Source: Eledone cirrhosa
Lineage: Eukaryota
Direction: 5' to 3'
Assembly: GCA_964016885.1 (NCBI GenBank)
Contig: OZ024756.1
Location: forward strand, 14,384,001 to 14,448,000
Length of the DNA stretch: 64,000 nucleotides
The notes under the pieces: generated by a model
Database searches by the model: none
The model's input: the letters and a program-made list of their open reading frames with translations, nothing else
Told to the model about the DNA's origin: nothing
Made by a program: the position numbers and the translations under genes
Shown: one piece after another, positions 11-60,066 of the stretch
Layout: every line of letters starts with the position of its first letter
How positions within the stretch are numbered: position 1 is the stretch's first letter

Positions 11-48
11 CCTTTTGAAAAGCAGAAGAACTGCGAAACCGGTAAAGG
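11..48 (+). ncRNA. Minimal type I hammerhead ribozyme, U3:A8 core variant
   Basis: CCTT-TTGAAAA-GCAG(AAGAA)CTGC-GAAA-CCGG-TA-AAGG: stem I CCTT/AAGG, stem II GCAG/CTGC, palindromic stem III ACCGGT, GUA cleavage triplet; followed by AT-rich tail and (TA)n at 122-166. Confidence 0.7.
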
Positions 49-118
49 AACCAAATAAATATATATATTTTTTAAAAAAAATAAGACTCCAGTTGCATTT
101 TCGATTTCATCTCTTTTT

Positions 119-169
<51 letters not shown>

Positions 170-299
170 GAAGTTCTATTTAAATTGTTGGGATACAACA
201 AGCAAATATTTTTATAACTGATATAAAGCACTCAACAAATTATTGGAGTAAAAATACGATATATTAACACATGGAAACTATATTTATAAAACCATATTT

Positions 300-362
300 A
301 TTTCATTATACATATTTCAAGGACACCAAGTTAAATTATGGTGTGCTTTCATCAGATAAAAT
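300..362 (-). ncRNA. Type I hammerhead ribozyme in a (TA)n-adjacent non-coding element (about 167-400)
   Basis: Minus strand ATTTTAT-CTGATGA-AAGCACACCA(TAATTTAACT)TGGTGTCCTT-GAAA-TATGTA-TA-ATGAAAT; element end (167-270) resembles 5100-5210 and 33205-33300. Confidence 0.7.
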
Positions 363-459
363 ATAATATAGAGCAGTTTTATAAATAAATATTGACATAC
401 CCTTAAAGAAAGCGACCATTTCTGTTGGAAGCTCCCAATGGTCGCATTTATACATCATT

Positions 460-1905
460 TATACATGATGTTCTGGCCGGCTATTGGGCGGTAATTTTTA
501 GCAAGGGTGGTTTGGCTATTTTGGGGGATGAGGAGAGTAGTGGCAGTTGATAACCATTGGGGCAGTTCTTGTGTGCCTTTGATGGTTTCTCTAAACAGCC
601 GTATGAGATCTTGCCGATAGAAGGGGGAAATTCTTCAGCCAGTATCCTGTTATGAGGTCTGGGCCTGGTGATTTCCTATTCGACATTTTCTGCAGAGCTG
701 TTTCCAGTATTGACCCATATGTCATATTCTTTTGTCTGGACATGCTGGCAGCATTCCTGTTCCAGTTCTTTTAGCCATTTAGTTTGTTTACTAAACCCGT
801 CATTCGTTTCCCATACAGATCTCCAGTAGCTATCAACCTGTTCTTTTGTAGGGTGTCATTTAGAGATTGAGCTTTTTCCATTGAAGCTGCGATAAACTGA
901 TTTAGGATCTCTGACAAATAATCTATTTAGTACTTGCCGTTTATATTTTAGTCTTTCTGCTACAGCTGTGAGTTGTTGTTTTAACTTGTGTAGTTTTAAA
1001 TCTTGTATCTCCAAATCGCCTCTGTAGTTTTTTCTTACGTCTTCCTGATGTCGTGTGAAGTTGCTTTTTATGTTGCATTTTATAATTACAGTGATCTGTG
1101 CGATACTTCGTCTCATGGACAAAATTTTGGCTTTTAAATTACGCATCCACGCTGGTTCAGGCTTTGTGTTTGTATCTTGGTTGCGTGGTTTTAGTTGTTT
1201 ATGATAGGATAGCAATGTGATAGCTGAAACATATAACAAAATATTATGCATTTCATATGTCGTCTCCACATCTTTGGACCGTGTGGCCTTCAGATAATTG
1301 TCAGCTATTTCGTTTACTGTTCCCAATTCCAATTTAGTGGGTTGTTTACTGATTCTGGTGTTGTATGGTCTGTTGCTCACATTAAGGCTGTGTATCTCTT
1401 GAGACATATCATCCCATATCACTTGTAATGTGTCCACAAGTCTTTGGTGTTCTGTTTGTACAGTAGAAGTATGGATTTCAGCTAGGTTGTTGGTGAGCTG
1501 TTTACTGCTAGATTCAGCTGACCATTCTCTCTGTTCATCAGTGGAAGTGGGGTGGATGTCAGCTACGTTGTTGGTGAGCCGTTTATTGCTAGATTTAGCT
1601 GACCATTCTCTGTGTCTGTCAATGGAAATGGAATGATTGTCTTCAATAGTGTCACTCAGTTCCATTAGATGTATCAATTTACATCTAATGATACGTTTTG
1701 CCTTTTCATTTAAATGTTTTTGGGAAAAGTCTAATTCTGGGTGTTTGGAGTTCCACAAAGTTTTTTAGCCTCTGCATAAAACCGAACTTTTGGGGGTCTG
1801 ATTGTTTGTAAGCTTCATGTAAATCTTTGTTGAGATCATAGCTCCATTGTATACAATGGTTGTAGTTGCGATTTGGTCGAAGGAGATTTATACGTTTTGC
1901 CATGA
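460..1905 (-). mobile_element. R4/Dong-clade non-LTR retrotransposon, degenerate 5' part of ORF through RT domains 0-1
   Basis: Frameshifted pieces WSYDLNKDLHEAYKQSDP, RLFVRDPKSVYRSF, PTKEQVDSYWRSVWE, KSPGPDLITGYWLKNF, PQWLSTATTLLIP..KNYRPIA. Confidence 0.8.
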
Positions 1906-2573
1906 TGAGTTCGTCTATTCACTAATATTTATTTATTTTTCAAAATGGGTCAAATCACCCCTTATATCCCTTTGAAAAAAATTCAAACTAACTCCTGTAC
2001 CTATATGATAGAAAAGTATCAAGTATTAGGTCAATATCTTTGATAGTTTTGAAATCGTAGGCCTTTATAATATTAATTAATTTTACATTTTTTTCCCGAA
2101 CGAGACTCCCGGACCAACTTGAGACAGCCATTTCTCCTCTAATAAGCTAAACACGACTTTGAAATCGTGTGTTTGGGGCTAACTTCTTCTGTAGAGTTCA
2201 AATATCTTATCACATCAAGTGTATCTTGTATATTTTTACACCTACAGGCCTCTGAAAATTGCCAAGAATTAAATGTACAGCAAATGTATGCCTCTTTTAG
2301 GTATTTTTATCTTAATAGGTACACTAGATAAAGCAACCATAATTGTTTTCCTGTTACTTAGCATATAGTAGACCATTTCTGAGCAGTAACTATGTTAGTT
2401 ACTATTATGGGAGTGTTAGAATACTTTTTTGAAATATGTGCGATTTCAAAATTTCTCAAAAAAAATGCCCATTTTGATGCCCTTAGTTGACCCTGTGGGC
2501 AGTTCACTATCATTTTCAATTGGTAAAAAAAATCTATAATTAATTAATATTTCAAAACTATCAAAGATATTGG

Positions 2574-2648
2574 AGAGAGAGAGAGAGAGAGAAAGAGAGA
2601 AAGATAGATAGAGAGAGAGAGATAGAGAGAGAGAAAGATAGAGTGAGT

Positions 2649-2708
<60 letters not shown>
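2574..2708. repeat. (GA)n microsatellite
   Basis: Direct inspection. Confidence 0.95.
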
Positions 2709-2712
<4 letters not shown>

Positions 2713-2955
2713 GAGAGGGGTATAAGTATAGATTCGTGAATGTATAAGCAAACAGATGGATAGATAGATTCATAAATCGAGAGGCAGACATATCTTTTTT
2801 TCCCTCGGATGAATAGCTAAATATAGATTAGATAAGATAAGATAGACATAGATTGTTCAACAAGATAACAGTGTTTCCATAAATTATTTTGGTTAAGCCG
2901 ATAAACATTTTCAAGTTAACTTTTATCAGCATATTCATACATTTAAGTGTTAAGG

Positions 2956-3235
2956 TACGTGGCGCAGTGGTTACGGGTGTTTTGCTCCCGATTGTGATTC
3001 TCGGCGACCATTGTATCCTTGAGCAAGACACTTTTCACGTTGCTCAAATGTACTCAGCAGAAAAAGAAAATAAGTTGTACCTGTAATTTAAAGGGCCAGC
3101 CTTATGTCACGTTGAACGTCCCTGAAAATTACATGTGGTACACGTGTCTCTGGATTGCTCCTCCTTTGCACGTTAATTCCATGAGCAGCCTGCTCCATTG
3201 ATCCAACCAATTGGAACATCACCAGAATCGACAGA
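2956..3235 (+). mobile_element. tRNA-derived SINE (same family as 14590-14916)
   Basis: A-box-like TGGCGCAGTGG, CCTTGAGCAAGACAC motif, 3' GCACGTTAATT..GAGCAG.CTG.TCC.TTGATC shared with the reverse complement of 14630-14670. Confidence 0.75.
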
Positions 3236-3900
3236 AGTTCATCAATATGTATTTAAAAAATCAGAAAAAAAGAAAAGGTTTTTCGCAAACCTTTCCAAGC
3301 AAATTTGTTTTAAAAGAAACAGGATTAACGGCGTGTAAAAATTCAATGGTCAAATTTCGGCCACGTCACTATGACCTGAATAGTTTCGTTTATGAACCGT
3401 GAACTGATTAAACGATAAATTATTTATATTATTTAAAGATAACTAGGGATTAAACAAACGGTTAGACATGTTAGGTCATTGTAGACACACTTCGAAGTAT
3501 TTACTTAACAATTATGTACCTCCGGATAGGTGATTCAACTAACAATATGTATTTCATATGTATTTCAAAATTCAGAAACCTTAACCTTCAATTTGAAAGA
3601 CTCCGACTCAGCCAGCATTTTCCTCCTACATTGATAAATTGTTTTACGCACGTGCGCAATTCTCAAAGATTTTACTGAGGGATATTATAAAAAAAAAGTG
3701 TATATAGTTTAATGTCGTGTTTTGATTCTCGACCCTGTGCAGAAAATTATGTTATTTGTTGGAATGTGTGTTTACTGTGTGTATAAACTGTTTTTGTTAG
3801 CATCTTTTTTTTAAATTTGAACTCAACGTTACCAAGTCAGAAGCAGGAATCCAACAACTTTACGACGCAAAGACTATTTATGTAAACAAATCTCTTTCAG

Positions 3901-3981
3901 CCTTCCCCGGTGTCCACCCACAGCTGGAAAGCCATTCGTGAAGTGGAAGGCTACACAAAGCCACATTCATTGCCATGGGAG
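3901..3981 (+). CDS. Internal coding exon A of an unidentified plus-strand gene ([27 protein letters not shown])
   Basis: Acceptor tctctttcag, donor gtcagt, 81 nt, phase 0/0, open frame, compatible with exon 7570. Confidence 0.7.
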
Positions 3982-4125
3982 GTCAGTTCGAATTGCTGGT
4001 ACTTTAGTTCTATCTTGCTTACAAGAACACGCCAGCTTGCCTGCTTACAAGAACACGCCAGCTTGCCTGCTATTCCTACACTCCAGCCAATGCTATAATT
4101 CATAATTGCTACACACACACATGTG

Positions 4126-4156
<31 letters not shown>

Positions 4157-4277
4157 GTATATATATATATGTATATATATATATGTATGTATATATATGT
4201 ATATATATATATGTATATATATATATGTATATATATATATGTATGTATATGTACATATGTATATATACATATGTACA

Positions 4278-4405
4278 TAACGAAGGAAATATGGAAAGGA
4301 ACCAGATGGACCATAGCACACCAGAGTACTCAATACTTAGGGTAATAGGAAAAAGTATGACCCCCGACGGCAGAGCTCAAGCCGTTTCGACGGCTATTTC
4401 AGAAA
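4278..4405. mobile_element. One-armed copy of the (TA)n-embedded foldback family at 15941-16138
   Basis: Near-identical to 15941-16075 (ACCAGAGTACTCAATACTTAGGGTA...GACGGCAGAGCTCAAGCCG), flanked by (TA)n and (CA)n. Confidence 0.75.
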
Positions 4406-4527
4406 CGCAACCATACACTCCCACGCATCCACACCACCCATAAACACACACACACAAACACGTGTGTATCCTCACATACACCTACTTTACCTGTATATAT
4501 ATATACATATATATATAGATATTTGTA

Positions 4528-4570
<43 letters not shown>

Positions 4571-4777
4571 GTGTGTGTGTGTGTGTTCATATATATATAT
4601 ATATAGTGAACAAAGATAGAATATAGAAACAAAAATATACACTCAAACGTGAACACACACACCAGACATTAAACACACTCGCTAACGCATGCGCAGAGAC
4701 AGAGACAAGAAGAAATAAATCAATTAAATAAAAATGGCGTAGACTTTACAATACAAAGGGAGGAAACATAATAGTTC

Positions 4778-4815
4778 CACTGATGATGTCGCAGAGTTGT
4801 GACGAAAGAACTTTG
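4778..4815 (+). ncRNA. Hammerhead-like motif with weak stem I (family shared with 54578)
   Basis: CA-CTGATGA-T-GTCGCA(GAGT)TGTGAC-GAAA-GAAC-TT-TG, directly followed by (TA)n. Confidence 0.5.
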
Positions 4816-4818
4816 ATA

Positions 4819-4854
<36 letters not shown>

Positions 4855-5058
4855 CTGTATGAAGAAATATATATATATATTTGTATTTTTAACCGTTGGT
4901 CAATGAATGATAAACATTGATTGCCAAATAAATTAACTATGGAGATATAAAAGATACAGAAGCGAAAACGAACCCTAACTAAACAGTGAGTGTGTTCCGT
5001 TATTATTTCTGGCAATATTATAACAATATGACTCTCCCCAAGTATAACAATTATATAT

Positions 5059-5099
<41 letters not shown>

Positions 5100-5102
<3 letters not shown>

Positions 5103-5474
5103 GGAGGTGAGTTTTATTGTAGTACAATAAAGCAATGCAGATATCGGATAAGTAGCACTCTACAGTTTGTAGGACTGGAGTATAAATAATATATAAGATC
5201 AAAAGATGGTTAAAAGAGTTCCATGTATTTTATTATGCGCATTTCAAATGCAAATATCACACATCAATCTAAAACTACTTTTCATATGTTGATTTAAAAC
5301 TGCACTATGTTGATTTAAAACTGCACTATGTTGATTTAAAACAGCACTTCATATCATGTCTCCCTATTTTATCTGACGAAAACGCAAATGTCATCGCATG
5401 ATGATATTTGTTTTTGAAATGCGCATAATAAAATACTTGGAATTCTTTTAACCATCTTTTGATCTTATATATTA
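5100..5474. mobile_element. Foldback non-coding element between (TA)n tracts (Penelope pLTR-like)
   Basis: Inverted repeat 5187-5258 / 5402-5474; internal 3x21-bp repeat TATGTTGATTTAAAACTGCAC; contains a hammerhead. Confidence 0.7.
5365..5435 (+). ncRNA. Type I hammerhead ribozyme, intact core
   Basis: TATTTTAT-CTGACGA-AAACGCAAATGTCATC(GCAT)GATGATATTTGTTTTT-GAAA-TGCGCA-TA-ATAAAATA: 8-bp stem I, long stem II, palindromic stem III ATGCGCAT, AUA triplet. Confidence 0.8.
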
Positions 5475-5765
5475 CATATATATATATATTGTTATATATA
5501 TATATATTGTTATATATATATATTGTTATATATATATATGCCTTCTTTCAGATAAATTGTTACTTGCTATCGCTTTTTTTTTTTTTTTACAAATGCCGCT
5601 TTTAGAATTGCTTTTTAATAGCTGGGTACTGTGTCTTTGGTATTGATTTTTATGTGTTGGGTGCTTGAAATATTTGGAGAGTTAAAAGGAGTTTAGGTCA
5701 TAAGCATGATTTTGATATGACGTCATCTCCTCACTCTCTTCTTTCCCCTTCTCTCTTTTCTCTTA

Positions 5766-5875
5766 CAGGTTGCCCCCCCCCCCAAAAAAAAAATGTATAC
5801 ATACTTTGATTACCTGTGTAGGCAATATCTATTAGAATGCTGTTGAAGTGTGTATACATTTTTTGGGACACCCTA
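5766..5875. mobile_element. About 100-bp Tc1/mariner-type MITE
   Basis: TIRs CAGG..CC..AAAAATGTATACA / TGTATACATTTTTTGGGACACCCT; copies at 17845, 37988, 60636. Confidence 0.7.
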
Positions 5876-6137
5876 TATCATCATCATCATCATCATACCC
5901 CTTTTCTTCCACGCTAGCATGGGGAAGAAGAAGGACGAGGTGCTAGATCTTCATTATGTGACGCGCGTTTCGCGATTGATCAGCTCAAGGCTTGATCTAT
6001 ATCGATCTGGCCAGACTCTGTAATGAAAAGCTCATCGAACTTCTGTTATGGCAATGACAGAATGATCCATATATAAATATATATACACACACATGCACGT
6101 GTGTATATATATATATATACACACACACACACATACA

Positions 6138-6193
<56 letters not shown>

Positions 6194-6204
6194 TTCATGC
6201 ACAT

Positions 6205-6592
6205 ATCATCATCATCACCGTTTTACGTCCGTTCTTCCAAGCTAGCATGGGTTAGACGGGTTGTCCTGTTGTGGGCAGTGTCCGGCCGGCTGACCATGTC
6301 TTGCTCATACGGGAATTGATTCTGGCTTGATTTCTACAGCTGGATGCCCTTCCTAACACCAACCTCATTTACAGTGAGTGCTGGGTGCTTTTTTGCCGTG
6401 GCACCTCCACGACCACTTTGCAGTGGAATGATAGGGACTCCAGTCCCTATCATCTCATTTCTACAGCTGAGTAAACTGGAGCAATGTGAAATAAAGTGTC
6501 TTGCTCAAGGAAACAACACATCACCCGGTCTGAGAATTGAACTCACAACCTCTCGATTGCAAGCCCAATGCTCTAACCACTAAGCCACGCGC
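6205..6592 (-). mobile_element. Full-length tRNA-derived SINE with RTE-derived tail type A
   Basis: Head GGCGCGTGGCTTAGTGGTTAGAGC..GTTCAATTC (A and B boxes); tail CCCGTCTAACCCATGCTAGC..GGACGTAAAACG(ATG)n; near-identical to 47008-47396. Confidence 0.85.
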
Positions 6593-7056
6593 CTATATAT
6601 ATATATATATATATATATACGCACACATACATATATATGCACACATACATATATAGAGATATGCACACATACATGCATATATAAATATATATGCACACAT
6701 ACATATATAGAGATGCACACATACATAGATATGCACATATACATGCATATATAAATATATATGCACACGTACATATATAGAGAAATGCACACATACATAT
6801 ATATGCACACATACATGCATATATAAATATATATGCACACATACATATACATGCATATATAAATATATATGCACACATACATATATAGAGATATGCACAC
6901 ATACATATATATGCACACATACATGCATATATAAATATATATGCACACATACATATATAGAGATGTGCACACATACATATATATGCACACATACATGCAT
7001 ATATAAATATATATGCACACGTACATATATAGAGAAATGCACACATACATATATAC
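6593..7056. repeat. Compound TA/CA-rich minisatellite (resumes at 7306-7360)
   Basis: Repeated GCACACATACATGCATATATAAATATATAT-type units. Confidence 0.85.
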
Positions 7057-7099
7057 AATTAACAACAAAGAGCGCTTAGAACATAGGTATATCTTTAAT

Positions 7100-7145
7100 T
7101 GCTAACAGTGTTTCGTCCACACTAGAAGTGGGACTCTTCAGAGCA
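7100..7145 (-). ncRNA. Minimal type I hammerhead ribozyme in a ~250-bp insert (7057-7305) within the TA/CA minisatellite
   Basis: Minus strand TGCT-CTGAAGA-GTCC(CACTTCTAGTGT)GGAC-GAAA-CACTG-TT-AGCA; canonical core, G10.1-C11.1 pair, GUU triplet. Confidence 0.8.
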
Positions 7146-7569
7146 TAAAGAGTAAATACATAGTATACAAGCATTGACAAAGCCAAAACAGAAGAATATA
7201 TGTGGGGATACCATAAGTTGGGAGGGCTCTGTCCTCTGACATTGAGCTAACCATATACTGCCTATTTGATAAGGGAGTGTTACACACTCCCAATTCTCTC
7301 CCTTATATACACATACATATATATGCACACATACATGCATATATAAATATATATGCACACATGCATGCGTATATATGTGTGCAACAACTAATCATACTGA
7401 AAAGCTCATATTCCCACAACACTAAACAATGAAGTGAAGCTCTCTGAACTCTGTTACAATAGTTTGCTGCCGTTTCATCACGCTTCTTTTCGTTCCACCG
7501 TTTCTCCCTCTATTTTATTCTTCATATAACTTTGGTTTTTCTTGTTTCTAACTCTGTTTCCTGTTTTAG

Positions 7570-7697
7570 CATCGACTTGATAGTCATGTCGTACCGGAAC
7601 TGCATATTCCTAAAACGACCATCCCCTACAGTAACGTGCGAGATCAAGTGAGAGATGTTCAGGACAAGATGGATCGCCACCGGCAGTTGCTTGACAG
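7570..7697 (+). CDS. Internal coding exon B (HRLDSHVVPELHIPKTTIPYSNVRDQVRDVQDKMDRHRQLLDR)
   Basis: Long polypyrimidine acceptor ctgtttcctgttttag, donor AG/gtaaaa, 128 nt phase 0/2, open frame with a coiled-coil-like end. Confidence 0.75.
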
Positions 7698-7963
7698 GTA
7701 AAACTCCCTTCTCACCTATCTAGAGAGGTAACACTCCCTCCTCACTTATCTAGAGAGGTAACACTCCCTCCTCACTTATCTAGAGAGGTAACACTCCCTC
7801 CTCACTTATCTAGAGAGGTAACACTCCCTCCTCACTTATCTAGAGAGGTAACACTCCCTTCTGACTTATCCAGAGAGGTAACACTCCCTTCTCACTTATC
7901 TAGAGAGGTAACACTCCCTCCTCACTTATCTAGAGAGGTAACACTCCCTCCTCACTTATCTAG
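7696..7963. repeat. 30-bp tandem repeat, about 9 copies, starting at the exon B donor
   Basis: Unit AGGTAACACTCCCTCCTCACTTATCTAGAG. Confidence 0.95.
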
Positions 7964-8360
7964 ACATCTCTCCGGACAACAATTGATTCCCTTCTTTAAG
8001 TATCACTTTAGAAGGAGAATCAGGGTGGAGAGAGAGGCACTGCACCCCAGTAAATTTACTGAAAGGTGGGTGAATGAAGCGAAAATGGCCCGAGTGATTG
8101 GGCCTTCTCTGTTTATAAGCCTGTAGGTTGAAGAAGAGAGCAAAAGGAAAAAAGGAGCACTTGCACAACACGCTCCCGAAGTTGAGGGTTGTTCTATCGA
8201 CAGGGTATTAAACAACCCATTTGTGGAGCCTCCCCCCTATTGGGGATTTCGATTGTTGTAATTGTTTGTTTTTATATTTTTTACACGACTGTATGTAAAA
8301 TCCCCGGCATGTCTTTGTATTGTCCCCTTTTCTTGTGCGCCCTTGTGGCTAATAAAGAAA
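7964..8360 (+). mobile_element. L1/Tx1-clade LINE, 3' fragment
   Basis: LSGQQLIPFFKYHFRRRIRVEREALHPSKFTERWVNEAKM..* (ORF2 C-terminus-like), then 3' UTR ending CCTTGTGGCTAATAAAGAAA. Confidence 0.65.
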
Positions 8361-8769
8361 TATATCTATCAATCTATCTAAGGACAAATTAATGATAATA
8401 ATAAAGGAACCCTTACGTCTTAATGGAGTCATAGATGCGATGTCCTGATACACGTAGGACATTTTAACACTAGGAGCCCATCCCTCTCTAAGTCAGAACA
8501 TGGTTCATTTCTTCTAGAGAGAGAGGGGGGGGGGCAATTGACCCCGGTACTAACCTTTTATCGATCTCGGAAGGATGATGGGAAATGTTGACCTCAGAGC
8601 GCTTGAGCTGGAATAAATACCACAAGGCATTTAATCTGACACACGAATGACTACCAATTCGCATGGTGTGTGTGTGGGTGGCTGGCTATTTTCAGTGAGA
8701 AGTTTCTGTTATAGGAATTATTATAAGTCATAAGTATCTCACATTAAAAGCTGAGTTTCTTCAATTGAT

Positions 8770-9235
8770 TCCTGGAAATCTAGCAGAGTAAATACGTTTA
8801 ATCTCAGCACTTTGGCCCTTTTGATGCCACCCTTGATTCCTCCTTCACCACTTATTCCTGAGAGGTAGTGGGGACCGAGTCCTCAAGCTCTCCTTCCAGT
8901 GGGCCCCGTCAGAAGCAACCGTCTCCAACTGGATCCTCAAGCGTGACCAATCAAACTCATGGATGTTATCCAACAATCTTGCTTGAGGGTCTATCCCTGG
9001 GTCTCCTACCAGTTGGTTTTGCCCATAAAATCTGTCCAGCGATTCTTTCTACAGACATTCTAAGCACATGCCCATAGTATCAGAGCTGTGGCCTCTCAAT
9101 TCAGCGAAGTAGCGGCTCTACCTGGACTGACTCTCTGATCTACGAGCTATTCACTTTATCGAGTAACGTTACTCCAAAGACCCTTCGGAGGAATCCCATT
9201 TCGGCCGCTTGTCTTCACGATCGCATTCTTTCATA
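8770..9235 (-). mobile_element. RTE-clade LINE, 3' fragment
   Basis: QAAEMGFLRRVFGVTLLDKV..IRE..VEPLL..YYGHVLRM..RI..PTGRRPR with stops. Confidence 0.75.
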
Positions 9236-11313: not shown

Positions 11314-11690
11314 GGTATAGCGTGATGTAATAATTTGTGGAAGAGAACGTTAAAATATCATTATATATATCACCTGTAGACTGTGGACAAAAACCATTAA
11401 TCTGGATACCTAAATATGGAATGTTACGCGATGGGGCCTCCCCACAGCCCCGGCGGACAGGATGGAGAAGGCGGTCCCACGGAGGACGGCAAGGGAGACG
11501 CGCTGGAAAAGCCACTTCAACTCGCGGGGTTCACACCTGCGGCTGGCCAGCTCAGCGCCTATGGTGGTGAGTAAGGAGGACACCAGAAGTCTCCTCTGCC
11601 AGGGGTAGAACCGCAAACCTGTAGGAGAGCGACCAGTATTTGAGGAGTTTGGTCTCCTCAACCCGACGTGCAGCAGAACCTGGGTTAGTC
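11314..11690 (-). mobile_element. CRE-clade non-LTR retrotransposon 3' fragment inside the 26-bp satellite
   Basis: PGSAARRVEETKLLKY..PLAEETSGV / LLTTIGAELASRRCEPRELKWLFQRVSLAVLRGTAFSIL matches the C-terminal restriction-like endonuclease region of CRE elements; GC-rich island. Confidence 0.7.
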
Positions 11691-14565
11691 GTAGTCTAGT
11701 TACACTATATATTACAGTAGCCTAGTTACACTATATAATACAGTAGTCTAGTTACACTATATTACAGTAGTCTAGTTACACTATATATTACAGTAGCCTA
11801 GTTACACTATATATTACAGTAGTCTAGTTACACTATATATTACAGTAGCCTAGTTACACTATATATTACAGTAGTCTAGTTACACTATATATTACAGTAG
11901 TCTAGTTACAATATATATTACAGTAGCCTAGTTACACTATATATTACAGTAGTCTAGTTACACTATATATTACAGTAGTCTAGTTACACTATATATTACA
12001 GTAGTCTAGTTACACTATATATTACAGTAGCCTAGTTACACTATATATTACAGTAGCCTAGTTACACTATATATTACAGTAGCCTAGTTACACTATATAT
12101 TACAGTAGCCTAGTTACACTATATATTACAGTAGTCTAGTTACACTATATATTACAGTAGTCTAGTTACACTATATATTACAGTAGTCTAGTTACACTAT
12201 ATATTACAGTAGTCTAGTTACACTATATATTACAGTAGTCTAGTTACACTATATATTACAGTAGTCCTAGTTACAATATATATTACAGTAGCCTAGTTAC
12301 ACTATATATTACAGTAGTCTAGTTACACTATATATTACAGTAGTCTAGTTACACTATATATTACAGTAGTCTAGTTACACTATATATTACAGTAGCCTAG
12401 TTACACTATATATTACAGTAGCCTAGTTACACTATATATTACAGTAGTCTAGTTACACTATATATTACAGTAGCCTAGTTACACTATATATTACAGTAGT
12501 CTAGTTACACTATATATTACAGTAGTCTAGTTACACTATATATTACAGTAGTCTAGTTACACTATATAATACAGTAGCCTAGTTACACTATATATTACAG
12601 TAGCCTAGTTACACTATATATTACAGTAGCCTAGTTACACTATATATTACAGTAGTCTAGTTACACTATATATTACAGTAGTCTAGTTACACTATATAAT
12701 ACAGTAGCCTAGTTACACTATATATTACAGTAGCCTAGTTACACTATATATTACAGTAGCCTAGTTACACTATATATTACAGTAGTCTAGTTACACTATA
12801 TATTACAGTAGTCTAGTTACACTATATATTACAGTAGTCTAGTTACACTATATAATACAGTAGCCTAGTTACACTATATATTACAGTAGCCTAGTTACAC
12901 TATATATTACAGTAGTCTAGTTACACTATATAATACAGTAGCCTAGTTACACTATATATTACAGTAGTCTAGTTACACTATATAATACAGTAGTCTAGTT
13001 ACACTATATATTACAGTAGTCTAGTTACACTATATAATACAGTAGTCTAGTTACACTATATATTACAGTAGTCTAGTTACACTATATATTACAGTAGTCT
13101 AGTTACACTATATAATACAGTAGTCTAGTTACAATATATAATACAGTAGTCTAGTTACACTATATAATACAGTAGTCTAGTTACACTATATAATACAGTA
13201 GTCTAGTTACACTATATATTACAGTAGCCTAGTTACACTATATATTACAGTAGTCTAGTTACACTATATAATACAGTAGTCTAGTTACACTATATATTAC
13301 AGTAGCCTAGTTACACTATATATTACAGTAGCCTAGTTACACTATATATTACAGTAGCCTAGTTACACTATATATTACAGTAGTCTAGTTACACTATATA
13401 ATACAGTAGTCTAGTTACAATATATATTACAGTAGCCTAGTTACACTATATATTACAGTAGTCTAGTTACACTATATATTACAGTAGCCTAGTTACACTA
13501 TATATTACAGTAGCCTAGTTACACTATATAATACAGTAGCCTAGTTACACTATATATTACAGTAGTCTAGTTACACTATATAATACAGTAGTCTAGTTAC
13601 ACTATATAATACAGTAGTCTAGTTACAATATATATTACAGTAGCCTAGTTACACTATATAATACAGTAGCCTAGTTACACTATATATTACAGTAGCCTAG
13701 TTACACTATATAATACAGTAGTCTAGTTACAATATATATTACAGTAGCCTAGTTACACTATATAATACAGTAGTCTAGTTACACTATATATTACAGTAGC
13801 CTAGTTACACTATATATTACAGTAGCCTAGTTACACTATATATTACAGTAGTCTAGTTACACTATATATTACAGTAGCCTAGTTACACTATATATTACAG
13901 TAGCCTAGTTACACTATATATTACAGTAGTCTAGTTACACTATATATTACAGTAGCCTAGTTACACTATATATTACAGTAGCCTAGTTACACTATATATT
14001 ACAGTAGCCTAGTTACACTATATAATACAGTAGTCTAGTTACACTATATATTACAGTAGTCTAGTTACACTATATATTACAGTAGTCTAGTTACACTATA
14101 TATTACAGTAGTCTAGTTACACTATATATTACAGTAGTCTAGTTACACTATATATTACAGTAGTCTAGTTACACTATATATTACAGTAGTCTAGTTACAC
14201 TATATATTACAGTAGTCTAGTTACACTATATATTACAGTAGTCTAGTTAGACTATATATTACAGTAGTCTAGTTAGACTATATATTACAGTAGTCTAGTT
14301 ACACTATATATTACAGTAGTCTAGTTACACTATATATTACAGTAGTCTAGTTACACTATATATTACAGTAGTCTAGTTACACTATATATTACAGTAGTCT
14401 AGTTACACTATATATTACAGTAGCCTAGTTACACTATATATTACAGTAGTCTAGTTACACTATATAATACAGTAGTCTAGTTACACTATATATTACAGTA
14501 GCCTAGTTACACTATATATTACAGTAGTCTAGTTACAATATATATTACAGTAGTCTAGTTACACA
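11691..14565. repeat. 26-bp minisatellite, about 110 copies (plus about 1.5 units at 11275-11313)
   Basis: Unit TTACACTATATATTACAGTAG(T/C)CTAG. Confidence 0.97.
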
Positions 14566-14916: not shown

Positions 14917-15719
14917 ATATACACACAATTTATATAGACATAAGAATGATAGATAGTATATATTTTAGTATAGGATATAAATAAGCAAGGCTTGGAGAAG
15001 GATGGACTCTGCAAGGCTTAAAATGCCCAAGAAACGCCGTATGTCAATACAGTGCCCCAACGACTCTATTGGGAGTTATGGGGCCATACATTCATGCAAA
15101 AATAAGCAATGACGATAATTCTTTCTAATATAGACCAGCAATTTAGGGGGAAGGGAAAGCCGATTATATCGACCCCAGTACTTAACTGGTACTTTATTTT
15201 ATTGGCATCGAAAGGATGAAAGTTAAAGCTGATCTTGGGGGAGTTTGAACTCTGAACATAAAGAGATGAAGCAAATACCGCAAATTTTTGTCTGCATGTT
15301 TTGATTCTGCCAATAATGGTTTCTGATTTAGGCACAAGGCCAACAATTTTGAGGGAGGGGAAAGTTGATTAGATTTACCCCAGTGGATATATATATATAT
15401 ATATATATGGATGTTTTGGCATTAGATAAATTGTTTTAAATGCTTCTCTGATTCTTTTCATTGAGATATCCAATATTAGTGACAAATAGCGTTCTGTCTG
15501 AAATCTATATATTTCAGAAGATCCCGTAATAGGCTGAAAGCAGAGATTCTTTGCTTAAACTTTAATCTGTACTAATAATAAATATTTGCTCTATGGGTTT
15601 ATATATACTTATATATACTGGTAATGGGGTAGTGCTTAATACTACCCTTTCATATTTATAATTATATATAACTCATATATAAGTATAAATATTATATATA
15701 TAACTCATATATAAGTATA

Positions 15720-15940: not shown

Positions 15941-15943
<3 letters not shown>

Positions 15944-16135
15944 CGAAGATGTGGTAAGGAACCAGGTGGACCATAACGCACCAGAGTACTCAATACTTAG
16001 GGTAGTAGAGTGGAGAATAGGAAAATGTAGTATGACCCCGACGGCAGAGCTCAAGCCGTGTCGACGGCTATTTCTGGACTCAGAAATACCCGTCGAAACG
16101 GCTTGAGCTCTGCCGTCGGTGGTCATACATTTCCC

Positions 16136-17259: not shown

Positions 17260-17414
17260 CTGAAGTGTGATGGTTAAGAGAAGGCGAGCTCTTCTGTTCA
17301 GATATGGCATCGGAGGGGGGGGGGGGTGATATGGATAGCCATCTAGAATCATATTAGACTATCGGTTTCGCGTAACTCGCATTTCTAAATAATCCCTCAA
17401 TACTTCATGTAAAC

Positions 17415-17467
<53 letters not shown>

Positions 17468-33192: not shown

Positions 33193-33294
33193 CGTGTGTA
33201 TAACCAAAGATTAGTATGGTTCATTGATTACTCAACGAATACAATTTTACAATAGATTAGAAGCATTCAACAGTAGATTTTCCAGGAGTTTTTA

Positions 33295-33501
33295 ATATTA
33301 TTCAAAATGTTAACGAATGAAAAATATTCACATAATCAAAATATATACTTTATTATATATATTTCAAAGGTACTATGTTGTTTAAGTACGTTTTTCTGAT
33401 GAAAACGTACTTAAACAACATAGTACCTTTGAAATGTGTATAATAAAGTATATATTTTGATGATGTGAATATTTTTCATTCGTTAACATTTTGAATAATA
33501 T
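33295..33501. mobile_element. Near-perfect hairpin with about 100-bp arms and a hammerhead core at its apex
   Basis: Arms 33295-33394 / 33402-33501, loop TCTGATG; right arm reads CTGATGA-AAACGTACT(..)AGTACCTTT-GAAA-TGTGTA-TA-ATAAA (33396-33447). Confidence 0.8.
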
Positions 33502-37030: not shown

Positions 37031-37300
37031 ATTAAAGAGGTTGTCATGTCTTCACAGCCAGTACTGTCATTTGAACATATACCATTTTTGTTACAAAGCA
37101 TTGTTCATGTTAATCACTGTGCATGCATTTTGCTCATTCTGCTCACTATTATATACACACACAATCATACATATCCGCACATGTATGTATACTCACACAC
37201 ATACTCACATATATATATATAATGCATGTACATATACCAAGATCATACATTTTAAGAAATGCTACTAATACACCTCTAAACAATTGTGATATATATATAT

Positions 37301-37448
37301 ATATTTATTAAAATAACAGAGTAAAGTTTAAGCAAAGAGTTGCTGCTTTCACTCTAAACGGGATCTTCTCATGAGTTTCAGAAGATCCCGTTTAGGGTGA
37401 AAGCAGTGATTCTTTGCTTAAACTTTAATCTGTTATTTTAATAAATAT
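37301..37448. mobile_element. (TA)n-embedded foldback element with a degenerate hammerhead-like right arm
   Basis: About 69-bp arms around CATGAGTTTC; right arm CAGAAGA-TCCC(GTTTA)GGGT-GAAA; related copies at 15510-15620 and 60183-60207. Confidence 0.75.
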
Positions 37449-37678
37449 TTGCTCTAGGGTTCTATTTGATATATATTTATCCTTATCGAGCCCTCTTTGG
37501 ATTTTAGTCTTCACATTTATTATTATTACTATATATATATATGTGTGTGTGTGTGTCACACTTTCTGCACTGTAAATATAAACAACATATACTATCACAT
37601 AAGCTTTCATTATATATTTCATTTTTTTTTTATTTTATGCTTTTATCACCTTCTTACTTTTTGCCTGCTCATACACAT

Positions 37679-41767: not shown

Positions 41768-42710
41768 GTCAGAAACTCCTGTCTCACCTCCTCCACACAT
41801 GTTATTGTACATCTGGCACCACCTATACCAAGGTAACTTTGGTAGACATTACTGTCAGAAACTCCTGTCTCACCTCCTCCACACATGTTATTGTACATCT
41901 GGCACCACCTATACCAAGGTAACTTTGGTAGACATTACTGTCAGAAACTCCTGTCTCACCTCCTCCACACATGTTATTGTACATCTGGCATCACCTATAC
42001 CAAGGTAACTTTGGTAGACATTACTGTCAGAAACTCCTGTCTCACCTCCTCCACACATGTTATTGTACATCTGGCACCACCTATACCAAGGTAACTTTGG
42101 TAGACATTACTGTCAGAAACTCCTGTCTCACCTCCTCCACACATGTTATTGTACATCTGGCACCACCTATACCAAGGTAACTTTGGTAGACATTACTGTC
42201 AGAAACTCCTGTCTCACCTCCTCCACACATGTTATTGTACATCTGGCATCACCTATACCAAGGTAACTTTGGTAGACATTACTGTCAGAAACTCCTGTCT
42301 CACCTCCTCCACACATGTTATTGTACATCTGGCACCACCTATACCAAGGTAACTTTGGTAGACATTACTGTCAGAAACTCCTGTCTCACCTCCTCCACAC
42401 ATGTTATTGTACATCTGGCACCACCTATACCAAGGTAACTTTGGTAGACATTACTGTCAGAAACTCCTGTCTCACCTCCTCCACACATGTTATTGTACAT
42501 CTGGCATCACCTATACCAAGGTAACTTTGGTAGACATTACTGTCAGAAACACCTGTCTCACCTCCTCCACACATGTTATTGTACATCTGGCATCACCTAT
42601 ACCAAGGTAACTTTGGTAGACATTACTGTCAGAAACTCCTGTCTCACCTCCTCCACACATGTTATTGTACATCTGGCATCACCTATACCAAGGTAACTTT
42701 GGTAGACATT
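41768..42710. repeat. 86-bp tandem repeat, about 11 copies, preceded by a hAT-like end (CAGTGGTTCCCAAC at 41658)
   Basis: ORF track repeats every 86 bp; units nearly identical. Confidence 0.97.
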
Positions 42711-47007: not shown

Positions 47008-47396
47008 TCATCATCATCAACGTTTTACGTCCATTCTTCCACACTAGCATGGGTTAGACGGGTTGTCCTGTTATGAGCAATGCCAGGTCAGGTGACCATG
47101 CCTTGCTTATATGGAACTGATTTTGGCTTAATTTCTACAGCTGGATGCCCTTCCTTTCACCAACCTCATTTACAGTGTCGGCAGGGGGCTTTTTTGCCAT
47201 GGCACCTCCATGACCACTTTGCAATGGAATGATATGGACCCCAGTCCTATCATCTCATTTCTACAGCCGAGTAAACTGGAACAATGTAAAATAAAGTGTC
47301 TTGCTCAAGGAAACAACACATCACCTGGTCCGAGAATTGAACTCACAACCTTTCGATTGCAAGCCCAATGCTCTAACCACTGAGCCATGCGCCTTC
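47008..47396 (-). mobile_element. Full-length tRNA-derived SINE, tail type A
   Basis: Near-identical to 6205-6592. Confidence 0.85.
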
Positions 47397-54265: not shown

Positions 54266-54577
54266 GGCATTACACATATTTTAATAATATATCAACAAAC
54301 AGGTATTTTAATATAACAGTACTTTATTGGTGAATTTGCAATCATTTATAAAGAATTTGTGATTAAAGTTTTTGTAGTTCATCAAACTAGATGTTCAATA
54401 TTTGGCATTCCTCAGATTCTGAGCAGTGAGAATAACACACACACACACACATGTACTAATATTGTTTCATGACTTTTTCAGATACAAACTTCAAGATGAT
54501 TCACACACACAACACATACAAACAAAATGGTGTAGGACAGAACAGAGGAGAGACACACAAAAAAAAAACCAAAACAG

Positions 54578-54618
54578 TCACTGAGGAGGTCACAGAATGT
54601 GTGATGAAAGAGCTTTGA
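54578..54618 (+). ncRNA. Minimal hammerhead motif (family of 4778)
   Basis: TCA-CTGAGGA-G-GTCACA(GAATG)TGTGAT-GAAA-GAGC-TT-TGA; upstream AAAATGG(C/T)GTAG shared with 4731. Confidence 0.55.
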
Positions 54619-54812
54619 ATATAAATAAACAACCATCCGGTTATCAAACAAACCAACAGGTGCATGTGTTTTTGATTGGAAACATGACCCTCTGAATGTA
54701 TAACCATATATATATAGGAGAGAATTCATGAAAAGAACATGTTTTCATTACAGGGTGTATATTACCACTAAAGTGAAAGACATAAAAACTGTGAAAGGTT
54801 CATCGCTTCATA

Positions 54813-54855
<43 letters not shown>

Positions 54856-54856
<1 letters not shown>

Positions 54857-56277: not shown

Positions 56278-56659
56278 GATGAGGTTCATACTACATTAAC
56301 ACATTGCAAATTACAAGCACATTCAAAAGCAACAGCAAAGCAGAAGTGGTGTTAAAAAACAGTATATCAAAATTTAGTACTTCTGTACATCCAGACATTA
56401 ACAGACATACGATTAAAATTATATGAGAATTTTAGTGTGCATATTGACAAAGACAACACTTTTAGGAAAAAGAAACTCAGGGCCTCAACTTCGTTGGCTT
56501 GTAATTTGCAATGTATTGATATGGTATAACCTCATCTCTTGTATGTATTACTCTTGAAACTTATAATAATATCTAAATTCCTGAGGATATGTAGAGCAAG
56601 GGACAGATACCTCATATATATCATGGTATGGTCTACCGCTATACAACATATGTAGAATT
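56278..56659. mobile_element. (TA)n-embedded element with inverted repeat (56278-56318 / 56497-56537) and broken hammerhead (56576-56659, plus)
   Basis: AATTC-CTGAGGA-..stem II..-AA-CATATG-TA-GAATT; palindromic stem III, but GAAA reduced to AA. Confidence 0.6.
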
Positions 56660-56792
56660 AAAATTATGTTTTAAATACAACTTGGTTATTCTCTCCCCAT
56701 TTACATATATATATCATCATCATCATCGTTTAATGTCCACATTTACAGTGTGTGCTGGGTGCTTTTTGTCGTGACTCCTACATGACCACTTT

Positions 56793-56825
<33 letters not shown>

Positions 56826-56924
56826 CGTACACGCATACACACACATCAGAAAAAAAATAGCAAAATATATTATTTAGAGAGGCACTTAACAATTTTACGC
56901 AATCAGATTAATTTATGCAGTAAT

Positions 56925-57476: not shown

Positions 57477-58500
57477 CATCATCATCATCGTTTAATGTCC
57501 ATCTTCGACGCTAGCATGGGTTAGACGGGAATTGTCCCAATTTGAAGCAAGGTTGGTCGGGTGACCGTGTCTCGCTCATATAGGACTATCTGGCAGGTTT
57601 TCTACGGCTGGATGCCCTTCCTAACACCAACCACATTTACAGTGTGGACTGGGAACTTTTTACCGTGTTACCTACACCGCCACATTACAGTGTGGACTGT
57701 GTTTTTTTTGTCGTGACCTACACGATCTCAATCTCATTTTCTCATTTATTTGGACTGGATGTTGTGGTACCAACTTTACAGAGAGAGGGTGGTGTTGGTG
57801 AGAGTGGGAGGCTGGAGCGGGGGTAGTGGATTGGGGTGCATATTTGGTTAAGAGGTGCCTACTAACTGCAGGTTTCGCTTTGTACATAGGCAAGGTGGGT
57901 CTTCTGTATTATTGCGTAGCGCCAAAGATCTGTGCAAGTGTGTAAGGTCGGAATTTATCAAATCTCCCTGGTTTTTCTGGGTCTACCTACTCCGTAACTT
58001 CCATCAATTTTGATCGCCCTGCACTTTCTTATACAGCTGTCATCTTTCATGCGCATCACGTTACCATACCAACGTAGCCTTCTCTCAAGTAAACATCTGA
58101 TCCCTCTTATTCCTAATTTCTCACTTAGCTCATTTATGCTTTGCCGTTCATGTATATTACTATTACATATCCAATGGAGCATGCATGCTTCGTTCCTTTC
58201 CAGTCTGTGCAGGTCCTCTGCACACAATGCCCATGTCTCACTGCCATGTAATATTGCTGTTCGTATACAGGCATCATGCAATCTGCCTTTCATTTTTAGA
58301 GAGAAACCTTTTGTGGTCAACAGCGGTATAAGCTCTCTGAACTTTTTCCATCCTATTCTGACTCTGGCTACTGTAATTTCAGAACACCCTCCTCCACTGC
58401 TGATTTTGTCAGGTAACAGAAAGTGTCCACTATTTCTATAGAACCATCTGGGCAATAGAAGGAGCTAGTATCCTGTGGGTACTTGCTACTTATTGCACCT
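57477..58500 (-). mobile_element. RTE-clade LINE 3' part with probable long 3' UTR ending in tail type A
   Basis: ARVRIGWKKFRELIPLL..LHGSETW..RRLRWYGNVMRM..GRPRKT, then non-coding sequence ending CCCGTCTAACCCATGCTAGC..(ATG)n. Confidence 0.8.
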
Positions 58501-58799
58501 GAGCATCAAAATCTACGTTCTTAAATAGTTTACCTGGTGATGTAAATGTTAAAGGGTTAAGTTATGCCCCCAAACACCAGAATAAACCTTTAACTTATTG
58601 AGCATTTTCAATATCATAGACAGTGTCTTTCATTAAAAATATGAAAGAGTTAACTAAAGTGTGTTATGTTGATAATCCCTCTAAATTATTTATTTTTAGG
58701 TTAACCAAAATTTGGTAGATGGGAGCTGTGTAGAAACCCATTATATAAATATTTATAGATTATCAGCATCATCACCGTTTTATGTCAATTTTTCCATAA

Positions 58800-59090
58800 C
58801 ATGCTTTGACCAATCACGCAATCTGTAACGGTTCCAAAAGGTGGCCATTAACTTAGACCACCGAGCAGATGACGCTGTGCATTGCAGTGATCCATCTTCT
58901 GAAGATGGGACCAAAGCCAGCTGCCTTGAAGATAGCTTCCAGGTATCGATGGTCAATCCTATCGAAAGCTTTTAATCGATCTAAATCAATTAGGGCCCCA
59001 TCAAAGCTAAGTTTACACCCTACCCTCTCTATGATGTATCATATGAGGTGGAGGTTGTCATGTATGGATCTAATCAGGATTGTGCACTTA
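58800..59090 (-). mobile_element. L1/Tx1-clade RT fragment
   Basis: RSIHDNLHLI..GALIDLDRLKAFDRIDHRYLEAIFKAAGFGPIFRRWI..VNG. Confidence 0.8.
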
Positions 59091-59303
59091 TGGTTCTTGT
59101 AACATGAAGTTCTGATTTAGGCACAAGGCTGACAAATTTGTGGGGAGCGGGGGAAAGTTGATTACCCCCCCCCCCCCCAGTGCATTACTGGTGCTTTATT
59201 TTTTTGATCCCATAAGGATGAAAGGCAAAGTTAACCCCAGCGGATTTGAGTTCAACAACACCAACACCAACAACAATAATAAAGGCTGGAGAAAGAGTCT
59301 TAC

Positions 59304-59636
59304 CTTTTGTTGTTGCATCATACGCAAAAAATTCATCTGCATACAGAGGAAATCATTGTGGATATTGTCGGTGAACTCTTCCATTGCATCCTGCACAACA
59401 CTGTGCACCAACTTGAAGGAAATTGAGCTGGATGATGGGATGTATGGTGCTGCTGCTGTAGTACTGCTGGGAACAACAAATTCTGTTGCAACTGCTCCTG
59501 CAGTAGTTGTTGTGGTGGTGGTTGTTGTTGTAGCTGTCGCTGCTTTCAGTGTTTCTGGTGCGAAGTGAACGCTGGGTGCAGTGAAAGCAGCAGACATTTT
59601 CTGCATTAGAGGCGTACTTGTTACAGGTGTAGATTC
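59304..59636 (-). CDS. NEDD1: NEDD1-like penultimate coding exon (111 aa; Thr-rich linker then gamma-TuRC-binding helix)
   Basis: Acceptor ctctttgcttccag, donor AAG/gtaaga, phase 0/0; SISFKLVHSVVQDAMEEFTDNIHNDFLCMQMNFLRMMQQQ aligns by eye with NEDD1 IRFIQNMIQETLDDFREACHRDIVNLQVEMIKQF. Confidence 0.75.
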
Positions 59637-59671
59637 CTGGAAGCAAAGAGAGTGAGAGAGAGTGAGAGTGA

Positions 59672-59733
<62 letters not shown>

Positions 59734-59982
59734 TTTCTTGTGCGTGTAGGGACATATACTTTATTATTATTATTCTCCTCTTGGTTGAGAAAAAATTTGG
59801 TCGTTCTGACTGCTACTAGTTATAGCGGGAGCAGACTGACCTCCCTGCCTTTGCTTCTATCTTTACACACGGCACTTGAAGGAATTGCTTCTACTTCATT
59901 TATTCTCATCTCGGGAACAATTTTGAATAGCGCCAGTTCGTAATTTGAACTCGGGAATTTTATATTCTCCGAGTGAAAAGAT

Positions 59983-60066
59983 CCTTCTGAGGAGAGTTTA
60001 TCTTTGCAATGGATGCCGTATGGACTGTCCGTTTATTTTTGAGACTCGAAACCGATTCGGTAAAGG
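59983..60066 (+). ncRNA. Type I hammerhead ribozyme, intact core, in a ~410-bp (TA)n-flanked element (59732-60140), intronic and antisense to NEDD1
   Basis: CCTT-CTGAGGA-GAGTTT(long loop)AGACTC-GAAA-CCG(ATT)CGG-TA-AAGG; GUA triplet; stem III can close as a monomer. Confidence 0.82.

Follow-up and report, generated by a model that had tools for sequence, protein, structure and literature searches.

Scattered type I hammerhead motifs in Eledone cirrhosa are most probably 3′ ends of Penelope-like elements beside (TA)n tracts, with one non-coding exception

In the available portions of Craig et al. 2021 (PMC8557442), Hydra-clade Penelope-like elements (PLEs) have a C-terminal GIY-YIG domain, a CxCX5C linker, a DKT motif and no CCHH, along with a hammerhead ribozyme (HHR) at the 3′ end, insertion at (TA)n, inverted truncated copies and an optional tail; Hydra-1_Obim from Octopus bimaculoides is listed there with (TA)n and a canonical HHR. 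For Neptune/Nematis-type PLEs, the corresponding portions of Cervera and de la Pena 2014 (PMC4209133) report a minimal type I HHR with an extra base after A9, a palindromic helix III, the U3-A8 variant and many families per genome, and single motifs are described as probably truncated PLEs. This literature already reports the U3-A8 core, palindromy of helix III and, in an octopus, a Hydra family inserted at (TA)n. The word hammerhead does not occur in the available text of an Octopus vulgaris repeat paper (PMC13282606). The elements described here share these traits with the two groups, and the system as a whole is a known one, namely PLE ends with minimal hammerheads at (TA)n.

The window analyzed is a 64,000-nucleotide stretch of the E. 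cirrhosa genome (contig OZ024756.1, positions 14,384,001 to 14,448,000). Searched with a descriptor of type I hammerheads, allowing CUGANGA or UUGANAA as core and requiring at least 3 bp in stem I, it gives six matches, at 11-48 (+), 299-363 (−), 5365-5435 (+), 7100-7145 (−), 54578-54618 (+) and 59983-60066 (+), so that six of the seven sites called intact by a first-pass annotation are recovered where it had placed them, the type I core (CUGANGA, GAAA and UH) with its three helices occurring above chance. Among the six, only 11-48 departs from the claimed CUGANGA, its core reading UUGAAAA (the U3-A8 variant). The seventh site, 4778-4815, holds as a family motif with compensatory stem II variants; with just 2 bp in proximal stem I, it escapes the descriptor. 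Helix III is palindromic, as had been noted, for ACCGGT, ATGCGCAT, ACATATGT and ACGCGCGT.

Across 100 block-wise dinucleotide shuffles of the window, the mean was 0.2 descriptor matches and the maximum 1, clearly below the real density. Also, 370 kb sampled elsewhere in the genome gave 21 matches against 2.65 in the control, and a further genome sample gave 35 motifs against 1 in the reversed control; the sampled density, about one motif per 11-20 kb, is below that of the window. That the motifs are chance matches in AT-rich, repeat-rich DNA would agree with the lack of any Rfam hammerhead at gathering score (in an E-value run, the matches listed, of 316, were mostly miRNA matches to TA repeats) and with single-motif folding z-scores that are unremarkable at 10 sites (−1.8 to +0.6); support for the motifs therefore comes from descriptor, controls and family structure and not from folding energy. 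However, the excess over all three controls and the thousands of exact copies, with reversed-pattern counts of zero for each of families B, C, F and G, refute this explanation and leave it a negligible probability. The exception is the damaged motif claimed at 17353 (17300..17415, −), which is unconfirmed because a search of 935 kb of sampled genome (E<1e-6) gave no match. By their sequence, the scattered motifs are thus genuine type I hammerhead motifs and putative ribozymes.

With a probability of about 0.9, these motifs mostly belong to 3′ ends (pLTRs) that carry a hammerhead, lie beside (TA)n and derive from at least six EN+ PLE families, family F being the non-coding exception. About 15 PLE-end insertions lie in the window, including stubs missed in the first pass. 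The sites at 11, 300, 4778, 5365, 7100, 37379 and 54578 represent six families and one subfamily (A, B, C, D, D2, E and G), and for all of these, autonomous-type elements with the same ends are found elsewhere in the genome, in which RT and then a C-terminal GIY-YIG domain (EN) lie upstream of the pLTR. Within the window, tblastn with 10 PLE protein queries (E<0.01) gave no RT or GIY-YIG match, in agreement with the first-pass annotation; given the coding links at other copies, the window copies are 5′-truncated ends of autonomous-type PLEs.

For example, the family C 3′ stub at 1..121 (+, HHR 11-48), which starts just upstream of the window edge and ends at (TA)22 (122-166), matches at 97% the 3′ end of locus L162, which carries a 770-aa RT+EN ORF; the coding link of this family comes from L162 and L130 (93% over 1,416 bp), and 11,632 exact 27-mers are counted genome-wide (control 0). 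The family E window copy (7053..7309, −), a stub at 7053-7225 with HHR 7100-7145 followed by an inverted tail at 7225-7309, matches at 100% identity the pLTRs on either side of the L127 ORF, and an ORF lies between tandem HHRs in L126 and L127 (two of the four pairs examined). Family A (5099..5464, +, HHR 5365-5435) has TA on both sides and combines an inverted 5′-truncated copy with tail (~5099-5259, minus) and a direct stub; its own EN/RT lies within 1.5 kb upstream in 9/30 loci (7 sense, 2 inverted), with RT+EN reading frames in L031-L033. For family B, a 3′ stub with tail at 168..437 (−, HHR 299-363), RT and/or EN is found upstream in 4/4 pairs examined, and 3,963 exact 30-mers occur genome-wide. 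A non-LTR fragment is present at 856-1764. HHR B was considered as the end of that fragment and rejected, since B relatives diverge from the window at ~437 and link to a Hydra-type ORF.

The family D 3′ stub at 4660..5051 (+) has its HHR core at 4780, followed by a TA tract and then the tail, and EN ends at a fixed upstream position in 15/30 relatives. Moreover, its stem II covaries, as TGTCGCA..TGTGAC in 4 copies and TGTTGCA..TGCAAC in 9, counted among the 12 commonest forms listed. The D2 stub at 54505..54800 (+, HHR 54578-54618, a descriptor match) has EN-linked relatives, the subfamily being found downstream of a Neptune/Nematis-type EN in L151 and L153. Family G contributes a palindromic stub with tail at 37289..37528 (+, HHR-fold motif 37374-37425), a second stub at 15512..15617 (+, core CAGAAGA) missed in the first pass, and a rearranged fragment at 60186..60322 (no strand assigned), directly 3′ of the TA tract that follows family F; RT+EN is present in four of five pairs examined, with tandem pLTRs 3,259 bp apart in L216. 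Tandem pLTRs are also seen in L126, L127 and L225. Most ORFs examined carry frameshifts or stops, that of L162 being open for its 770 aa, and pairs without any ORF occur in families E (2/4), C (2/3) and G (1/5).

The first-pass annotation had read the whole population as non-autonomous, non-coding elements, and in its general form that reading, of retrozyme- or SINE-like units spreading as short RNAs or circles, is very improbable: every unit in the window is indeed short and non-coding, and family F fits it (dimers, short frames, a circular fold z of −4.3), but six families and D2 continue into RT/EN at other loci and have ragged 5′ ends. For families A-E and G it is refuted, their ORF links and ragged 5′ ends being at odds with a non-coding tandem unit, and retrozyme-like units are left at 59983 (family F) only. 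The claim of many families of PLE-type type I hammerheads tied to microsatellites stands, and the preferred reading is that of truncated PLE ends.

RT and EN domains were recognized via motifs and mutual tblastn, Pfam giving no significant match for the Hydra-type proteins and for family D only a weak RVT_1 (E 0.0036); therefore, the clade calls are based on motifs read by eye. A CxCX5C linker occurs in the proteins of A, B, E and G, and DKT and an R-W motif in those of A, E and G, with CxxC and CxH around E/N; as read by eye, the marks include R-W-R/I instead of RWK and no CCHH. Judged by the motifs that Craig et al. 2021 list, families A, B, E and G classify as Hydra-type PLEs, and an assignment of the A/E/G proteins to the Nematis type was rejected, their match to the published Hydra motifs being the closer one. 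In families C and D, a CX4CxxC linker and a second cysteine pair inside EN are seen, which would fit the CX2-5CxxC linker and CCHH-bearing EN of Neptune or Nematis. Compared with the Hydra-clade PLEs of that paper, as far as its available text goes, there are at least four Hydra-type families here, with thousands to tens of thousands of copies, and whereas the described elements are generally <3 kb, those found here measure 3.3-5.9 kb and have long 3′ UTRs.

Among the sites first listed as damaged, 37379 is not: its CAGAAGA core is the norm of family G, being found in 26/29 copies in one count, in 39/40 in another and in 100/100 among the matches listed. The family has 17,750 exact 31-mers genome-wide (control 0), more than any of the other three for which such counts were made, and is only ~2% divergent among 40 copies; it thus has a fixed U4-to-A change together with a U.U pair at 10.1-11.1, and lacks the canonical U4 of what is predicted to be a hammerhead-like fold. 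The Hydra rows of File S2 in Craig et al. all read CUGANGA, as the descriptor used there required, unlike the U4A of family G. U3-A8, U10.1.U11.1 and U4C are natural core variants in Perreault et al. 2011 (PMC3088659), the main text of which, figures aside, does not contain the term U4A, and a whole-word search of the literature at hand returned no paper on cleavage by U4A mutant hammerheads. In the available text of Roberts et al. 2023 (PMC9901934), on a different hammerhead, single and double mutants of the CUGA region have low activity except for a C-G swap. Given the fixed U4A and the U10.1.U11.1 pair, family G is predicted to cleave poorly, and the core change likely weakens or abolishes cleavage. 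At slightly less than even odds, this hammerhead would be either a catalytically dead protein-binding or priming signal or an active core variant rescued by the protein of the element. The G pLTR contains two sub-repeats of ~140 bp; searched for another ribozyme, these gave only Rfam matches of E>5, and a scan of viral contigs with the family G RT found no relative.

Two further damaged copies have relatives elsewhere in the genome. The family I copy (56497..56700, +), in which 56576 was rightly called damaged, has an eroded GAAA box and helix III ACATATGT, its relative L213 being intact; a Hydra-like EN lies upstream in 1/3 relatives (E 1e-7). The copy at 5957 (5905..6062, −) belongs to multi-copy family H, the three best relatives of which all read CCGAYGA (U4C), with helix III ACGCGCGT and no ORF link in these three. 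Also, 33396 marks a CUGAUGA in a B-related palindromic stub (33200..33490, +; 85% to L061) whose 5′ stem I arm was lost to an inverted duplication. Family J, missed in the first pass, is represented by a stub at 4275..4410 (−) and a palindromic stub at 15943..16135 (no strand assigned), both broken off inside stem II; it has 62 matches in sampled loci and a full motif with a U3-A8 core in L166.

The insertion pattern is common to several families. In the genome sample, 15/21 motifs have (TA)n downstream at a distance of up to 200 bp (12% under the null), which bears out the adjacency first proposed. Under a lenient test, (TA)3 within 16-18 nt, the scored ends adjoin TA in 28/30 (A), 30/30 (E), 28/30 (F) and 25/30 (C) loci, these loci, like those for the tail and inversion counts, being best matches and not a random draw. 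There are two discrete 3′ ends with a fixed tail length of 98 (A), 86 (E), 113 (F) and 66 bp (C), longer than the 30-40 bp reported; where copies are in tandem, the tail corresponds to what separates pLTR from ORF, an arrangement also described by Frangieh et al. 2024. An inverted upstream copy is seen in 11/30 (A), 6/30 (E), 7/30 (F), 23/30 (C) and 2/30 (D). Partial tandem pLTRs, an inverted 5′-truncated copy and an optional tail, which are PLE hallmarks, are thus all found, with counts for A, C, E and F.

From published PLE work, we infer that the GIY-YIG domain would nick AT-rich or (TA)n DNA and that RT would start at one of two sites 3′ of the hammerhead, giving copies with or without the 66-113-bp tail. 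RT would usually halt after no more than a few hundred bases, in many cases following strand inversion, and the short stubs are likely left by such early termination. Hammerheads would then owe their abundance to a position adjoining the RT start and not to selection on individual copies. The majority of single stubs would be inert, and minimal motifs would need to be in a dimer, or assisted by protein, in order to cleave; the ribozyme with which family G spreads is likely weak or dead.

Family F (59733..60136, +), a partial monomer with TA on both sides and a 5-bp helix III in HHR 59983-60066, is the only true non-coding unit and is retrozyme-like. The unit is 481-488 bp long, 626 exact 26-mers occur genome-wide, and head-to-tail dimers, with the type I HHR in two consecutive units, are present in 7/30 loci; the longest ATG frame is 37-70 aa in three dimers checked, and the predicted circle folds with z = −4.3 against 40 shuffles. 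[quoted passage not shown] However, its 483 nt exceed the 170-400 nt given there, falling within the 51-972 bp of the preprint of Li, Clavereau and Pollet 2026 (10.64898/2026.07.22.740005, available text), and it differs from retrozymes in that most copies are partial monomers scattered at (TA)n and bearing PLE tails; no pLTR that could be its parent was found. It has no significant similarity to six autonomous loci, and among the first 100 matches listed there are 8 same-strand pairs 471-487 bp apart and none at 2-6 kb. The sequencing runs listed for F include no RNA run, which has no bearing on its expression.

It is unlikely, though well above negligible, that F is only the pLTR of an unsampled autonomous PLE, its dimers arising by template jumping. 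The two-end tail and inverted copies are as in the autonomous families, the copies read, of at least 626, amount to 31 loci and a few incidental ones, and L054 has a broken Hydra-type piece directly upstream of its F copy. Nonetheless, upstream sequence differs in 30/30 loci, with no shared non-F sequence; where a run exceeds one monomer, what follows is a further F copy; and the 1,545-bp pair in L221 holds two partial copies. Family F is thus best taken as a retrozyme candidate targeted to (TA)n. Its insertion signature suggests PLE machinery, and it likely borrows the same enzymes as the PLE families.

The contribution of this genome lies in its scale, extrapolated to the order of 10^5 motifs: about 1.5-2.8 x 10^5 per genome, against 2,000-9,000 in Schistosoma, coelacanth and Xenopus in the available text of PMC4209133, figures obtained with a narrower descriptor and not directly comparable. 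It also brings together, as a set of natural variants, cores of the canonical, U3-A8, U4A and probably U4C kinds. Craig et al. 2021, in the available portions, call it unclear what the hammerhead does in PLE transposition, and in Frangieh et al. 2024 insertion in vitro did not require it. If the family G ribozyme is dead, this would be genome-scale evidence that PLEs do not need self-cleavage, and natural sequences, those of family G set against the canonical A, B and E to which it is related, make the question of what the hammerhead does open to testing.

The first-pass annotation had reported type I hammerhead (HHR) motifs across the window, which has a GC content of 36% and is rich in (TA)n tracts and satellites. 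This is supported by a structural descriptor, which gave 6 matches at the claimed coordinates, whereas 100 block-wise dinucleotide shuffles averaged 0.2 and never exceeded 1; when stem I had to span 4 bp or more, the figures were 5 and 0.11. Site 11-48 is indeed a hammerhead, although its core is of the U3-A8 kind (UUGANAA) and not the CUGANGA proposed; site 4778, whose stem II forms are compensatory among copies, was missed by the descriptor because its proximal stem I has only 2 bp. Neither Rfam nor the folding energies of single motifs supports the motifs by itself. Elsewhere in this 3.0-Gb genome of 1,796 contigs, presumably that of an octopod cephalopod, sampling 10 kb at each of 37 round coordinates (369,800 bases) yielded 21 descriptor matches, confined to 9 of the 37 samples, against 2.65 in 20 shuffles. 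With the descriptor relaxed at stem II, CUGANGA, UUGANAA and CAGANGA cores numbered 17, 11 and 7, against 0, 0 and 1 in reversed sequence. Scaled to the whole genome, these counts come to about 1.5-2.8 x 10^5 motifs, an approximate number since matches cluster. Moreover, the claimed proximity to (TA)n is borne out, 15 of the 21 sampled motifs being followed by (TA)5 within 200 bp, compared with 12% of random positions.

The earlier observation was largely right; of its interpretation, kinship with Penelope-like elements (PLEs) stands, whereas non-autonomy fails for every family but one, F (59983). For example, family A (5365) has its own GIY-YIG endonuclease (EN) or reverse transcriptase (RT) within 1.5 kb upstream in 9 of the 30 best-matching loci, and RT+EN frames occur in three loci elsewhere in the genome (L031-L033). 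L126 and L127 each hold an RT+EN ORF between two HHRs of family E (7100), spaced 5.3 and 5.9 kb, and their HHR-carrying ends (pLTRs) are 100% identical to the window stub; two fetched inverted HHR pairs had no RT+EN ORF. Family D (4778) shows an EN end at a fixed upstream place in 15 of 30 loci; in one other locus the EN lies farther upstream, and three have it inverted. A related EN precedes family D2 (54578) in L151 and L153. A 770-aa ORF is present in one of three fetched pairs (L162) of family C (11; 11,632 exact 27-mers genome-wide), and L130 matches the 3' end of that locus at 93% over 1,416 bp. The first 8 relatives fetched for family B (300; 3,963 exact 30-mers) were without a linked ORF, which was found in 4/4 wider pairs. 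Family G (37379) has RT+EN in 4/5 fetched pairs. For family I (56576), the HHR is intact in one relative, L213, and one of three relatives is preceded by a Hydra-like EN. Family H (5957), for which 40 of 2,407 candidates were scored and gave 41 matches, has the core CCGAYGA in 3/3 relatives and no ORF link in these three. The motif claimed at 17353 has no relative in 935 kb of compared genome sequence (E<1e-6). A very common U3-A8 family, J, with a long stem II and a long helix III, was also seen at 4275-4410(-), 15943-16135 and in L166, the window copies being truncated in stem II.

A Pfam search of the family proteins was uninformative for clade. The CxCX5C linker is common to the A, B, E and G proteins, three of which (A, E and G) have the DKT and R-W motifs as well; all are marks of the Hydra clade (Craig et al. 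2021, PMC8557442), to which these families are assigned by motifs. In File S1 of that paper, (TA)n is the site given for almost every Hydra family, among them one from Octopus bimaculoides, and File S2 gives canonical HHRs for Hydra families. Families C and D are provisionally placed by their CX4CxxC linkers in the Neptune/Nematis type.

The family G motif had been described as damaged, a view contradicted by the A at position 4 in 39/40 copies and in 100/100 among the matches listed. Its fold reads AGUUU / CAGAAGA / U-CCC loop GGG-U / GAAA / 5-bp helix III / U U / AAACU. The natural variants U3-A8, U4C and U10.1.U11.1 are described by Perreault et al. 2011 (PMC3088659), whose main text does not contain "U4A", and a literature term search on U4A hammerhead mutants found no paper. 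Because U4A is not among the variants named there and CUGA-turn changes gave low activity in deep mutagenesis of another hammerhead (Roberts et al. 2023, PMC9901934), the family G hammerhead is expected to cleave weakly or not at all; nevertheless, this is the commonest of the four families counted exactly (17,750 exact 31-mers). A hitch-hiking founder mutation and retained function are equally open explanations, since the copies are too young for selection on the core to be decided (mean divergence of 2.3% over 52 nt in 40 copies). Just upstream of the U4A motif, two diverged sub-repeats of ~140 bp with small hairpins are observed (L216:3076-3384, in a family G pLTR, and a window fragment at 60207-60322); these could be a second RNA signal, and Rfam gave nothing below E 5 for them.

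In the four families scored, insertions finish at either of two discrete points: some copies have a short end, others a tail of constant length, 98 (A), 86 (E), 113 (F) or 66 bp (C). Where copies are in tandem, this tail corresponds to the stretch separating pLTR and ORF. By a lenient test, the end abuts TA in 28/30 (A), 30/30 (E), 28/30 (F) and 25/30 (C) loci; an inverted copy lies upstream in 11/30 (A), 6/30 (E), 7/30 (F), 23/30 (C) and 2/30 (D). The two end points match the two RT start sites mapped in a lizard PLE (Frangieh et al. 2024). The lizard element also nicks DNA at AT-rich sites, its HHR is assisted by protein, and in vitro it inserts without HHR cleavage. By analogy, two RT starts and AT-rich nicking would also operate in these families. 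Ends of different PLE families are stacked at a shared TA tract in each of the segments 122-437, 4822-5464 and 59681-60322 and at many other loci (e.g., L015, L023, L041 and L142); therefore, one insertion site draws further insertions.

Other repeats share the window. A 302-aa frame at 856-1764(-), without significant Pfam matches, and the remains downstream of it, reaching ~440, resemble an R4/Dong-type non-LTR element at its N-terminus; the insertion of family B truncates them. The C-terminal non-LTR piece at 11410-11721(-), which we take to be a CRE/HERO-like restriction-like endonuclease element, ends at a 110-copy minisatellite (26-bp array, 11691-14564), and a similar frame occurs at L160:1502-2689. 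LINE-type fragments at 42709-45120(-), 57958-58464(-), 61495-61905(-) and 63138-63527(+) presumably contain a zinc-knuckle ORF, an endonuclease start and RT C-termini, Pfam giving zf-CCHC alone (E 0.07). Two tRNA-like Rfam matches barely above the gathering score, at 6526-6589(-) and 47330-47387(-), are probably tRNA-derived SINE heads. The 117-bp tandem array at 36150-37026, most units of which contain CTGAAGA but no GAAA fold downstream, failed the descriptor.

Finally, family F (626 exact 26-mers genome-wide) forms head-to-tail dimers in 7/30 loci with a spacing of 481-488 bp. Its monomer has a GC content of 37-38% and no ATG frame above 70 aa (three dimers checked), and its circular fold gives z = -4.3 against 40 shuffles. 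These features fit the way a 2026 preprint (10.64898/2026.07.22.740005) defines non-LTR retrozymes by their tandem units. An autonomous parent may exist among unsampled copies, and in L054 a broken Hydra-type piece lies immediately upstream of F; comparison with six autonomous loci revealed no significant similarity, and the DNA upstream differs per locus in 30/30 loci. Since this retrozyme-like unit carries PLE tails and inversions, use of a PLE protein in trans is likely. Elsewhere, L173 (G000:C3:280000001-280010000) holds four repeats, spaced 311 bp, of an HHR with helix III ACGCGT, and a further copy is dispersed; this is a putative second retrozyme-like tandem family. Taken as a whole, the HHR system at PLE ends is an already-known arrangement, described earlier by Cervera and de la Pena 2014 (PMC4209133) and Craig et al. 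2021 (PMC8557442), carried here by new families.
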